Under the pieces are notes generated by a model. It was not told the origin of the DNA. It was given only the letters and a program-made list of their open reading frames with translations, and ran no database searches. Source: a virus (taxonomy: Duplodnaviria > Heunggongvirae > Uroviricota > Caudoviricetes). From it: a DNA stretch of 5,053 bases. Each line of letters opens with the position of its first letter. Positions within the stretch are counted from its first letter, which is position 1. Position numbers and translations under genes: made by a program. The stretch is from the IMG/VR virus record IMGVR_UViG_2671181111_000008. One strand, 5' to 3'. Below are positions 1 to 5,053 of this stretch, one piece after another.

Positions 1-61
1 ATAGATGGGCGCGATTGTTGCCAGACAGGACAATTTTCACAAGACGTCGCTGATGGGGCGC

Positions 62-82
62 TTACCGTAATGATGGCGACAT
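62..82 (-). pseudogene. Probable remnant of an SAR-endolysin (R21-like) start: ATG overlapping the holin stop, then MSPSLR and TAA
   Basis: Minus strand reads GAA-TAA-TG: ATG at 82..80 overlaps the S stop (84..82) in a TAATG arrangement, as in lambdoid S-R junctions. It translates M-S-P-S-L-R and then stops at TAA (64..62). From memory, phage 21 endolysin begins MPPSLRK. Downstream sequence does not continue an endolysin-like frame. Confidence 0.35.
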
Positions 83-297
83 TATTCACCTCTCGCAGCC
101 TTACGCTTGTCTTCTCTGATTTTGAAGTACAGATTTGTCAGATAAGTCAGGAAGCCCAGAACCAGACTCCCCAGTACACCAATCGCAGCCCACTGTGACG
201 GACTGACCTGATCAAGCCACTGTAAAAACCAGTAGCCAGCACTGCCTGCGGAGGTGCCGTAGGCAATGCCCGTTGAAATTTTGTCCATGGATTTCAT
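82..297 (-). CDS. S: Class II holin / pinholin, S21-like (71 aa)
   Basis: 71-codon ORF with ATG at 297..295 and GGAGG Shine-Dalgarno (309..305) 7 nt upstream. N-terminus MKSMDK gives the Met1/Met4 dual-start motif. Two hydrophobic segments and a charged C-tail ([13 protein letters not shown]). The sequence matches my recollection of the phage 21 pinholin. Position downstream of Q and tRNAs fits a lambdoid late operon. Confidence 0.85.
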
Positions 298-589: not shown

Positions 590-656
<67 letters not shown>

Positions 657-664
<8 letters not shown>

Positions 665-795
665 NNNNNNNNNNNNNNNNNNNNNNNNNNNNNNNNNNNN
701 NNNNNNNNNNNNNNNNNNNNNNNNNNNNNNNNNNNNNNNNNNNNNNNNNNNNNNNNNNNNNNNNNNNNNNNNNNNNNNNNNNNNNNNNNNNNNNN
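657..795. other. 139-nt run of N (assembly gap or masked sequence)
   Basis: Read directly. It removes the 5' end of the tRNA at 590-664 and about 130 nt of what is otherwise tRNA-cluster spacer. Confidence 1.
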
Positions 796-817
796 ACCTA
801 CTGAGCCAAGTCGGCAC

Positions 818-894
818 TGGACCGCCACCGGGGACTCGAACCTCGCACACTCAACTTAAAGGGTTGACGCTCTTTCCTGATGAGCTAGTGGCGG
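818..894 (-). tRNA. tRNA-like gene with atypical anticodon loop CCUUUAA (C33; anticodon positions read UUU); isotype uncertain
   Basis: Reverse complement folds as a cloverleaf: perfect 7-bp acceptor stem (CCGCCAC/GTGGCGG, C1-G72), D-stem GCTC/GAGC with 9-nt loop containing GG, anticodon stem TCAAC/GTTGA, 5-nt variable loop, T-arm CGAGG-TTCGAGT-CCCCG with one A-C mismatch, discriminator U, encoded CCA at 820..818. Position 33 is C rather than the near-universal U. Confidence 0.6.
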
Positions 895-895
895 T

Positions 896-971
896 TGGTG
901 GCCCTTGCTGGATTTGAACCAGCGACCTGGCGATTATGAGTCGCTCGCTCTCACCACTGAGCTAAAGGGCC
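896..971 (-). tRNA. ileZ: tRNA with CAU anticodon, tRNA-Ile2 (lysidine-type, ileZ-like) rather than tRNA-Met
   Basis: 76-nt cloverleaf: acceptor GGCCCTT/AAGGGCC, D-arm GCTC-AGTGGTGA-GAGC, anticodon loop CUCAUAA (U33, anticodon CAU), T-arm GCTGG-TTCAAAT-CCAGC, discriminator A, encoded CCA. It closely resembles my recollection of E. coli tRNA-Ile2 (ileX), and lambdoid Q-to-S regions typically carry ileZ. Confidence 0.8.
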
Positions 972-1181: not shown

Positions 1182-1880
1182 CACTTTGCTTTGAAAATGC
1201 CGTCTTTTTTTTGAACGTGTTCTCATTACAAACAATAAAGCCTCACTATCCAGTCGGTGAAAAATGTGTTTCATTACAACCCAGTGACCAGTAAATGTTT
1301 TGGACCAGTTTTTGGTTGTTACTCCCGCCAGTAATGCCAGCTCCTGATATTCATAACCTTCCCCACCAACCTGGTATTCATAACCTTCCCCACCAAAAAG
1401 TTCTGCTTTTACTGCCTGCGCCGCCAGCCAGATTAATTTTTTCAGGCGTTCCTGCGTTTTCCCTGCAATTTTTCTGGTACCGGATTGAGCATTAAATTCA
1501 TTCCACGCCCACTGTGTTATCGCGATCTGATATTCCCAACAAATACTCCCGCTGTAACACCACAACAACCAGGCTTTATGATGTTCTTCAAGAGACAGAA
1601 CAGCCCGCCGCCACGATGATGTCGAAAACTCAACCGGACTGACCAGAGGAATTGACGTCCCCTTCGCCAGCGATTGCTTTCCCGGGATTGGTGGATTATC
1701 CCGCGTTATCATTTTTCCAGTCACTTCATCGCGGTACCGGATTTTTTTACGCCTGTAACGCCCTGTATCGAACATGGCATTCTCTTGCCAGGCTTCAAGC
1801 TGACCTTTTGTTGCCCCACTCAAATCAGCGGTGGCGATAATGAGCTGCTCACGCACAAACTGTAAATACTGGTTATTCAT
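1170..1880 (-). CDS. Putative late-gene antiterminator (Q-like, about 236 aa), assigned mainly by synteny
   Basis: Long ORF immediately downstream of rusA and upstream of the candidate late promoter, terminator, tRNAs and holin, which is the canonical Q position. The ORF track starts at a GTG (1886); the ATG at 1880..1878 overlaps the rusA TGA stop as ATGA and is the more likely start. I do not recognise a specific Q-family motif, so the function is inferred. Confidence 0.55.
   Translation of the reverse strand: MNNQYLQFVREQLIIATADLSGATKGQLEAWQENAMFDTGRYRRKKIRYRDEVTGKMITRDNPPIPGKQSLAKGTSIPLVSPVEFSTSSWRRAVLSLEEHHKAWLLWCYSGSICWEYQIAITQWAWNEFNAQSGTRKIAGKTQERLKKLIWLAAQAVKAELFGGEGYEYQVGGEGYEYQELALLAGVTTKNWSKTFTGHWVVMKHIFHRLDSEALLFVMRTRSKKRRHFQSKVLQK
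1343..1396. repeat. Tandem 27-bp direct duplication (26/27 identical) inside the Q-like CDS, encoding GGEGYEYQ twice
   Basis: Copy 1 at 1343-1369 (cctgatattcataaccttccccaccaa) and copy 2 at 1370-1396 (cctggtattcataaccttccccaccaa). In frame, giving GGEGYEYQV-GGEGYEYQE in the protein. Confidence 0.9.
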
Positions 1881-3748: not shown

Positions 3749-3904
3749 TTACTCCTCAGGTTCGTAAGCTGTGAAGACAGCGACCTCCGTCTGGCCGGTT
3801 CGGATTCGTACCTCGCAGAGGTCTTTCCTCGTTACCAGTGCCGTCACTATGACGGTTAAACAGATGACGATCAGGGCGATTAACATCGCCTTTTGCTGCT
3901 TCAT
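3749..3904 (-). CDS. hok: Hok/Gef-family type I toxin (51 aa), HokD/RelF-like
   Basis: Translation MKQQKAMLIALIVICLTVIVTALVTRKDLCEVRIRTGQTEVAVFTAYEPEE matches my recollection of E. coli HokD/RelF. Single N-terminal TM segment and conserved Cys. ATG at 3904..3902 preceded by AAGGAG about 9 nt upstream. The 70-aa track ORF is an in-frame upstream extension. Confidence 0.9.
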   Translation of the reverse strand: MKQQKAMLIALIVICLTVIVTALVTRKDLCEVRIRTGQTEVAVFTAYEPEE

Positions 3905-4078
3905 AGCCTGCTTCTCCTTGCCTTTCGGCACGTAAGAGGCTAACCTACATGTGTTCAGCATGGATTGAGCCTCAGATTAATGTTAAGCGTCTTGCAGGAC
4001 GCGTAATGTTAACTGGGGCTTTTCTCTATCTGCCTTTTGGTGTTCATGCCTGAGACAGATAGCCTCAAGCACCCGCAG
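3905..4078 (-). promoter_or_regulatory. hok mRNA 5' leader (tac-like 5' end, 5' stem-loop, upstream translation-initiation region)
   Basis: Minus-strand sequence gcttgaggctatctg...cagatag...agcctcttac...gcaaggagaag...ATG parallels the plasmid R1 hok leader as I recall it. The 5' segment (about 4078..4063) is complementary, with one bulge, to the 3' UTR segment (about 3700..3685), the fold-back arrangement characteristic of hok mRNAs. Confidence 0.5.
3975..4075 (+). ncRNA. Candidate Sok-like antisense RNA region (ends not determined)
   Basis: By analogy with hok/sok, the antitoxin RNA is transcribed antisense to the hok leader, starting near the upstream initiation region and running toward the hok mRNA 5' end. 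The plus strand here carries weak -10 candidates (TAATGT at 3978-3983 and 4004-4009) and the complement of the hok 5' stem-loop. I could not fix a clean promoter or terminator. Confidence 0.3.
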
Positions 4079-4163: not shown

Positions 4164-4343
4164 TTACCGCCAGTATTCAATGCACATGACCGCCATGAAC
4201 ACCCCTAAAAAAAGGGCATTTATATGTCCAAACATTAATATCAAAACATCAATTTTTTCCATATACCTTGCTGTGAAGATGATGGGCATACATGATGCGA
4301 ACAACCAGAACGCAACAAACAAAAACTGCAATGCGTTTTTCAT
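4164..4343 (-). CDS. Possible small hydrophobic (two-TM) protein, 59 aa, in an AT-rich island
   Basis: Internal ATG (4343..4341) of the 72-aa track ORF is preceded by AGGGGGAATA, an acceptable SD about 5 nt upstream. Product MKNALQFLFVAFWLFASCMPIIFTARYMEKIDVLILMFGHINALFLGVFMAVMCIEYWR has two hydrophobic stretches. AT-rich DNA readily produces spurious ORFs, and an overlapping antisense ORF exists. Confidence 0.25.
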   Translation of the reverse strand: MKNALQFLFVAFWLFASCMPIIFTARYMEKIDVLILMFGHINALFLGVFMAVMCIEYWR

Positions 4344-4555
4344 TATTCCCCCTACAATCAATGTGCAATAACATTTAAACACACCTCAATTTGGCCGGAC
4401 ATATAAATATCTAAACCAGAAAAAATCACTTACATAGCGTTACAAACTCTTTAGTCTAAATACTCATCGTAAAACATTCCCCATACTTATCAGTCCGTTC
4501 CGCGCCAGGTAGCTTATTGCCTTATCTGGCAACCTATAATCAGGTTTCCGCTTTT

Positions 4556-4978
4556 TCAGTTGGCTGGTCGTTTAACCGACATAGTTAACCCATTAATCTG
4601 GTTGCCGGATGCTGGTGGATTTTCGCGTTTTAGTTGTTCATAAAAGTGCACAGCTTTAACCAGTTCTTCTGATGTAACCGGGACTGGTGGGGCAGTGAAT
4701 AAGGCCTGAATTTCATAGTTCGGCCTGTCGTTACAATCCTCTTTTTTCGGTACATATTTCCAGTCACCAACCCACAACTCCCCCTGAGAGTCCATAACAC
4801 CTTTTTTCACGTAGCGATATCGCCACGCTATCGGCTCTGCTTCCAGCGATGCCCGTGCAATTTTGAATAACTCGCCCTCTACTCGCGCCATCCCTGAATT
4901 GGGGTGGCATTTCGTAATCGCTATTTTTAATTTGGCTTCTTCGATTAATTGTTCTTTTGTTAATTCAGTCATTTTCAT
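4556..4978 (-). CDS. Hypothetical protein (140 aa), unknown function
   Basis: ATG-initiated ORF (4978..4976) of normal GC content and non-repetitive composition, same orientation as the rest of the prophage genes. I recognise no motifs. The IS1 end lies 9 bp upstream of its start codon. Confidence 0.6.
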   Translation of the reverse strand: MKMTELTKEQLIEEAKLKIAITKCHPNSGMARVEGELFKIARASLEAEPIAWRYRYVKKGVMDSQGELWVGDWKYVPKKEDCNDRPNYEIQALFTAPPVPVTSEELVKAVHFYEQLKRENPPASGNQINGLTMSVKRPAN

Positions 4979-4987
4979 TACCGCCCT

Positions 4988-5053
4988 GGTAATGCTGCCA
5001 ACTTACTGATTTAGTGTATGATGGTGATTTTAAGGTGCTTGCGTGGCTTCCAT
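4988..5053 (+). mobile_element. Left end of an IS1-family insertion sequence (divergent isoform), truncated by the window edge
   Basis: ggtaatgctgccaacttactgatttagtgtatgatggtgattttaaggtgcttgcgtggcttccat aligns with my recollection of the IS1 left end (GGTGATGCTGCCAACTTACTGATTTAGTGTATGATGGTGTTTTTGAGGTGCTCCAGTGGCTTCTG), with about 8 mismatches in 66 nt. Confidence 0.85.
5043..5053 (+). CDS. insA: Start of IS1 insA (partial, runs off the window)
   Basis: GTG GCT TCC AT.. at 5043 onward corresponds to the InsA N-terminus M-A-S of IS1, at the expected distance from the left inverted repeat. Only 11 nt are in the window. Confidence 0.45.

Follow-up and report, generated by a model that had tools for sequence, protein, structure and literature searches.

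Where a terminus of an insertion sequence lies a few base pairs before a start codon, the locus raises the question whether the gene behind it is complete, whether it can still be expressed, and what the element has done to its surroundings. Such a junction closes the window, by which we mean the whole 5,053-nt stretch of DNA analyzed here. An IS1-type terminus, GGTAATGCTGCC, begins at position 4988 and faces the ATG of a minus-strand ORF, visible on the plus strand as the 'cat' at 4976-4978. The preliminary description of this DNA had placed an IS1 left inverted repeat at 4988, 9 bp from an ORF start at 4978, and direct reading of the sequence confirms it. The features are collected in Table 1.

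Table 1. Features of the window, with positions counted from its first base.
Feature	Position	Strand	Remarks
IS66-family terminal repeat	1-65	-	reverse complement GTAAGCGCCCC...; homology to IS-free L001 stops at 66
Holin gene	82-297	-	P21-type
tRNA array	601-971		downstream of Q; partial tRNA match at 601-655
Masked stretch	657-795		139 N, part of the tRNA array
Tandem duplication in Q antiterminator gene	1343-1396		27 bp, 2 copies, 96% match
hok/sok type I toxin-antitoxin locus	3749-4074		complete
Hok/Gef ORF	3749-3961	-	within the hok/sok locus
sok (Rfam match)	3899-4074		118.9 bits
72-aa ORF	4164-4382		hydrophobic-rich; between 140-aa ORF and hokD
Intact phage ORF	4556-4978	-	140 aa from ATG 4978; starts MKMTELTKEQ...
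Native 8-mer GGTAATGA	4975-4982	-	overlaps first ATG; equals IS1 right-end terminus
9-bp spacer TACCGCCCT	4979-4987		native DNA between IS1 end and first ATG; remaining 3' arm of the upstream hairpin (coding strand)
IS1F-type IS1 left end	4988-5053	+	66/66 to K-12 IS1F; window stops within element
Terminal inverted repeat IRL	~4988-5010		part of IS1 left end
Inward promoter-like site CTGCCA-16-TATGAT	4995-5022		within IS1 left end
insA GTG start	5043		first 11 nt of insA inside window

The junction and the isoform of IS1

From 4988 onwards the window reads GGTAATGCTGCCAACTTACTGAT..., which is the left end of IS1, and the plus strand across the junction is ...gtcattttcat taccgccct/ggtaatgctgccaacttactgatttagtg.... 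The IS1 end is 15 bp from the second ATG (window 4972), where the RefSeq annotation starts the gene. Alignment to the window revealed about 20 complete E. coli genomes that carry the region without IS1. IS-free homologues are 97-100% identical to the window and their alignments end precisely at 4987. E. coli FDAARGOS_944, for instance, is 100% identical over 688 bases and then continues into native DNA, ...cattaccgccct ttcaggcggcctcctgatg..., as does L002; across the insertion site the IS-free copies L001 and L002 read ...cattaccgccct/ttcaggcggcctcc.... The spacer is presumably one copy of a 9-bp target duplication; the second copy is absent from the available genomes. IRL and insA point away from the ORF, which the insertion left untouched.

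Against IS1A of K-12 MG1655 (L006) the 66 bases of IS1 in the window show 58 identities, and the 8 differences (12.1%) agree with the divergence of about 12 percent from canonical IS1 noted earlier. The same 66 bases are identical throughout to IS1F of K-12 MG1655 (L029 3473-4240, beside fecIR) and to the annotated IS1F of LC567836. Matches of this quality are far beyond chance, and the complete identity to K-12 IS1F shows that the suggested non-K-12 isoform is in fact a known diverged isoform of K-12 and Shigella. By our computation 73 of 768 positions distinguish IS1F from IS1A in K-12, and 73 mismatches are likewise given between IS1F and the IS1A/E consensus (PMC12428005).

Searching IMG/VR with the exact 44-nt junction gave a single match, the 5462-bp contig L004, and species-representative genomes gave none. 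From window position 4, and setting the masked stretch aside, L004 differs from the window by one mismatch at 3872, within the hok ORF. It runs 484 bases further than the window and contains 550 bases of IS1F in all, identical at 545/550 positions to IS1F of K-12, at 547/550 to that of LC567836 and at 496/550 to IS1A. The extension holds the complete insA. L004 then stops inside IS1, as is typical of draft assemblies at repeats. With 550 of 768 bp readable in this contig nearest to the window, we took the complete element from two genomes with the same junction, L010 and L016, which a lookup of the exact ORF protein in public assemblies had returned together with L026. Both hold the full IS1 (aligned over 1-768), so a true IS1 body extends beyond 5053 and not merely a repeat-like fragment.

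The sister 768-bp copies are identical to K-12 IS1F at 761-763 positions. In L010 the terminal repeats have arms GGTAATGACTCCAACTTACTGAT and ATCAGTAAGTTGGCAGCATTACC of 23 nt, which are 87% complementary. The insA gene has 91 codons in the extended contig L004 as well as in L010, L016 and L015, the last being a separate insertion treated below; the full copies in L010, L016 and L015 have the A6C frameshift motif AAAAAAC at position 307 and a longest open (insB) frame of 174 codons. Gene calls in L023 are Zn_ribbon_InsA, HTH_Tnp_IS1 and DDE_Tnp_IS1. Sequence identity, a length of 768 bp with repeats of about 23 bp and the insA/insB' layout all assign the copy, by these predicted features, to the IS1F isoform of the IS1 family, known from K-12, where it lies beside the fec operon, and from Shigella. 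It differs from the K-12 copy in its coding capacity: insB7 of K-12 IS1F is annotated as a pseudogene, whereas the sister copies keep the 174-codon frame open. IS1F hardly transposes in K-12 (PMC12428005).

The ORF and its start region

The RefSeq protein for the ORF, WP_005069274.1, begins at the second ATG and has 138 aa. The ORF product matches phrog_660, a phage protein family of unknown function, with E = 6.3e-47, residues 1-139 aligning to profile positions 1-133 of 193. We found no match in Pfam, NCBIfam, PADLOC or PDB, and no Rfam family upstream of the ORF. Since the IS1 end lies so close to the ATG, one may ask, as the preliminary description did, whether a longer gene lost its 5' end to IS1, leaving an ORF that now starts at a fortuitous in-frame ATG. 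That closeness is all that speaks for it. In IS-free copies of the same prophage an upstream stop limits the maximal ORF to the identical 140 aa, with the gene annotated in RefSeq as 138 aa, and the phrog_660 alignment places profile position 1 at residue 1. The start is therefore native, the chance of a longer gene is negligible, and the ORF is a complete phage gene that has not been truncated.

Next to the 140-aa ORF lies a smaller one of 72 aa, which matches no entry in any of the family libraries. RefSeq leaves it unannotated in FDAARGOS_944, and other gene callers give a 59-aa version.

Upstream of and into the 140-aa ORF the IS-free coding strand reads CATCAGGAGGCCGCCTGAAAGGGCGGTAATGAAAATG. 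Between a GGAGG and the ATG it contains a native 7-bp hairpin with a GAAA loop (CCGCCT-GAAA-GGGCGG; L001 6679-6700). The segment from GGAGG through the hairpin to UAAUG has a predicted folding energy of -12.9 kcal/mol (z = -3.2), and 0 of 200 shuffles fold as well. The IS1 insertion point is the 3' edge of the hairpin loop; GGAGG, the 5' arm and the loop now lie beyond IS1. We rejected the hairpin as an intrinsic terminator, as no T-run follows it on either strand and a terminator scan found none. In phage T4 genes 38 and 25 the Shine-Dalgarno sequence and the start codon are reportedly brought together by a hairpin that lies between them. A GGAGG set apart from the ATG by a stable GAAA-loop hairpin gives the IS-free sequence a likeness to these genes, a resemblance drawn from sequence alone. 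The native hairpin could present the distant GGAGG to the start codon or could instead mask a proximal Shine-Dalgarno-like GGCGGT, and the latter would set it apart from the T4 genes.

The start region also contains a short native mimic of the element. The 8-mer GGTAATGA occurs once in the window outside IS1 and is present in the IS-free homologues as well. Together with the inserted IRL its region makes an inverted repeat of 7 nt with the arms CATTACC (4976-4982) and GGTAATG (4988-4994). In RNA reading out of IS1, CAUUACC is predicted to pair with GGUAAUG and thereby to cover the first AUG.

The far end of IS1 and neighboring insertions

With the nearest contig ending inside IS1, the far end of the element was inferred from L010, which matches the window except for one mismatch and the masked stretch. 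For comparison we used an IS-free reference prophage (L030), which sits at tRNA-Ser/mtfA. Starting from the ORF, its order is Ea22-like, DUF4406, DUF977, DNA-binding/replication, YdaT and a cro/cI-like HTH pair, followed by relBE, ydfABC, dicB, DUF1482, exonuclease, DUF4224 and integrase. In L010 this IS1 copy leads, at its IRR end, directly into the 3' part of the exonuclease gene, at L030 position 9566. Beyond it the same prophage continues in the same orientation, collinear via DUF4224 and integrase to mtfA. Relative to the IS-free reference L010 lacks about 8.9 kb, comprising the Ea22-like gene, DUF4406, DUF977, replication, YdaT, the cro/cI-like pair, relBE, ydfABC, dicB and most of the exonuclease. 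Thus the far IS1 end that had been called for beyond the window could be located in L010; the accompanying 8-9-bp target duplication is absent, the DNA there having been deleted.

This layout fits the classical outcome of either an adjacent deletion promoted by IS1 or recombination with another, directly oriented IS1 copy, and no duplication is left at the far end because either route is expected to lose it. According to section 5.2.1 of PMC9330008, which cites Turlan & Chandler 1995, intramolecular deletions and inversions by IS1 go along with the loss of one direct repeat, IS1/Tn9 being the case given. L010 resembles the adjacent deletion described there, with one end fixed at the ORF, the other 8.9 kb away and no direct repeat. 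Two-copy recombination would give the same deletion product.

L016 shows a different outcome at the same junction. The next 447 bp are inverted there and lie between two IS1F copies of opposite orientation (L016 4011-5991), and an inverted 8-bp target duplication is present (CAAATATG/CATATTTG). Such an arrangement is the signature of intramolecular replicative inversion, and like the deletion it has no notable difference from the known IS1 rearrangements. The fresh 8-bp duplication indicates IS1F activity in cis or in trans. In a further group (L007, L008, L009, L011, L013, L014, L019, L020 and L027) the IRL is reduced to GGCAGCATTACC, a 12-bp scar (L007 5975-5995) that joins DNA near the integrase through TGGC microhomology.

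The primary insertion was inferred from the exact break relative to the IS-free copies and from a sister insertion that has its duplication. At the window-type junctions whose far end is readable, L010 and L016, unrelated prophage DNA flanks IS1. Searches of viral, genome and metagenome collections for the expected right-hand junction, with a duplication of variable length, returned nothing or the sister (type B) insertion only, and no genome with the window-type insertion and an intact 9-bp duplication was found in these scans. The window junction was likewise absent from 5,426 complete E. coli genomes, in which the IS1 copies near the homologous ORF sit at other positions and are of IS1A, IS1B or another kind. 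Two further independent insertions of this sort lie elsewhere in the homologous ORF/small-ORF region: an IS1B-family copy (L032 2069-2836) with a 9-bp duplication CCCTTCCTG and an IS1A-family copy (L033 1501-2268) with a 9-bp duplication CAAAACATC. The homologous ORF is annotated as frameshifted in both genomes.

In type B insertions (L015, L017, L018 and L021-L024) IS1F lies 10 bp further upstream with unchanged orientation, and in L015 (5214-5981) it is framed by a perfect 9-bp duplication, GCCGCCTGA. In L012 an IS66-family end stands directly before TGAAAGGGCGGTAATG, and 66 bp of native upstream DNA are missing (L012 ~3545-5986). A stretch of about 20 bp in front of the ORF thus has three IS junctions, each in a different lineage, two of them IS1F insertions 10 bp apart and one an IS66-family insertion. 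Over 2.4 kb beside the junction the IS-free copies take a central position: they show 5-6 differences from each IS-bearing type, while the IS-bearing types differ from one another by 6-9. The three IS events are therefore independent of one another.

The window-type junction (type A) might nevertheless descend from a type B IS1F by a 10-bp IS1-adjacent deletion at the IRL end. Type B reads IS1/GCCGCCTGAAAGGGCGGTAATG, and dropping the 10 bp beside IRL yields exactly the junction of the window; the two IS1F copies point the same way and are over 99% identical, and the scanned collections contain type A only without an intact duplication. The SNP distances stand against such a descent, as IS-free copies differ from type A at 5-6 positions and from type B at 5, and the two types from each other at 8-9, which derives each type from an IS-free ancestor. 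In our judgement a 10-bp intramolecular target would also lie very near the element's own end. We therefore give a derivation from type B very little credence and retain a separate insertion of type A.

Each of the three events takes away either GGAGG or the hairpin's 5' arm, and each adjoins the native GGTAATGA, whose identity to the IS1 terminus could attract transposase. It is tempting to see in the 20 bp before the ORF a true IS target hot spot, or the result of selection that favors disconnecting the ORF, hokD, Q and the lysis genes, although we consider this rather doubtful.

Expression of the ORF and decay of the prophage

All genes of the window, namely the ORF, hok/sok, DUF968, RusA, Q, tRNAs and holin, are on the minus strand in the early-right to late layout of lambdoid phages, with the ORF as the first gene of a hokD/DUF968/rusA/Q block. 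Genes in this layout are normally transcribed from an immunity-region promoter. In the layout of L010 the immunity-region promoter region would be deleted. A candidate native promoter, TTGAGA-16-AATAAT, lies about 90 bp upstream in the IS-free copies, a site not above chance (1 found vs 3.2 expected), and IS1 cuts it off from the ORF. Within IS1 and across the junction, a scan for consensus matches passed no outward promoter-like site on the strand of the ORF; the sole site of this kind at the junction is the inward one of IS1.

Of the earlier proposal that the insertion removed the native promoter and left the ORF to read-out or hybrid promoters, the first part is supported, in a stronger form than proposed: the ORF is cut off from its native upstream DNA, about 8.9 kb of which is gone in L010. 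A hybrid promoter at the IS1 end is unlikely, as the scan is empty and 9 bp to the ATG puts the transcription start inside the ORF. More generally, IS1 could have activated the ORF by an outward or hybrid promoter at its left end or by read-out from within. IS1 can create fusion promoters (Prentki et al. 1986, among the cases mentioned in PMC9330008), TTGGCA, which matches a -35 hexamer at 5 of 6 positions, occurs in the IRL read outwards, and the insertion frees GGCGGT from the native hairpin. However, the best outward combination found by direct reading pairs TTGGCA with GAAAAT, the only following hexamer with A2 and T6, across an over-long spacer of 19 nt. As GAAAAT overlaps both ATGs, transcripts would start inside the ORF, and the predicted pairing of the IS1 end with the start region would cover the first AUG in RNA arriving from within IS1. 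Together with the empty scan this makes activation improbable.

We instead favor a loss of expression. The ORF would have lost its upstream GGAGG, and with the rest of the block (hokD, DUF968, rusA, Q, tRNA and holin) it would be deprived of any local promoter as well as of the early rightward one. Because IS1 offers no convincing outward promoter, the ORF is probably promoterless and silent or weakly expressed. The Shine-Dalgarno-like GGCGGT is retained 7 nt before the second ATG, and translation of read-through RNA via this site would still be possible.

At its other end the window is closed by an IS66-family element, which interrupts the lysozyme gene immediately behind that for the holin. 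Just beyond this end L010 carries HTH_Tnp_1, TnpB_IS66 and DDE_Tnp_IS66 genes. The window is therefore an island of about 4.9 kb between IS1F and IS66-family ends. In public assemblies 1786 of 3333 blocks with the ORF protein sit on contigs of 5-10 kb, and such short contigs are expected if IS copies flank the ORF.

Inside the island, the tandem duplication in the Q gene yields GGEGYEYQV twice; the IS-free E. coli copy, in which Q carries a frameshift annotation, lacks it. Where the tRNA array is masked in the window, L004 has 67 real bases, and its tRNAs are Met(cat), Lys, Thr and Gly; the calls in the window itself are Lys and Met(cat).

The IS-free reference shares gene set and order with Qin/Rac-like prophages (ydfABC, dicB, relBE, hokD, rusA, Q, essD/rrrD), and the window retains hok/sok, DUF968, RusA, Q, tRNAs and a P21-type holin from this set. 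The copy here differs from Qin and Rac in its site at tRNA-Ser/mtfA and in being cut down to the island between the two elements.

Taken together, an IS1F-type IS1 would have transposed into the GC-rich hairpin in the short untranslated stretch upstream of the ORF, the gene that opens the late-early (nin-like) block. The lambdoid prophage concerned is integrated at tRNA-Ser/mtfA, and its host genome is of Shigella type. The far IRR end of the element would then have become joined to the exonuclease gene with deletion of the early region, as seen in L010. In other strains the same copy would have made an inverted duplicate with the 8-bp inverted target duplication, or would have been nearly erased to the 12-bp scar. 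What is left would be a dead prophage remnant bracketed by IS elements, in which the ORF is silent or weakly expressed. We consider this course of events, an IS1F insertion beside an intact ORF followed by adjacent deletion in what became a prophage remnant, highly probable as a whole. Its components, IS1F, IS1 deletion and inversion and a Qin/Rac-like cryptic prophage, are all of known kinds and in this sense ordinary.

Beyond annotation the result matters little. A draft contig of a Shigella-type genome is explained as an island between two IS copies, the small ORF beside IS1 can be annotated as a complete phage gene, and the IS1 itself as the familiar IS1F isoform. A single point is mildly new: independent IS events cluster beside a mimic of the IS1 end and a hairpin. 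For the prophage, IS1F would have driven a stepwise decay by insertion, 8.9-kb deletion, inversion and scar formation. This textbook series of IS1 rearrangements fits the known expansion of IS1 in Shigella, where it is the most expanded insertion sequence (PMC7373316).
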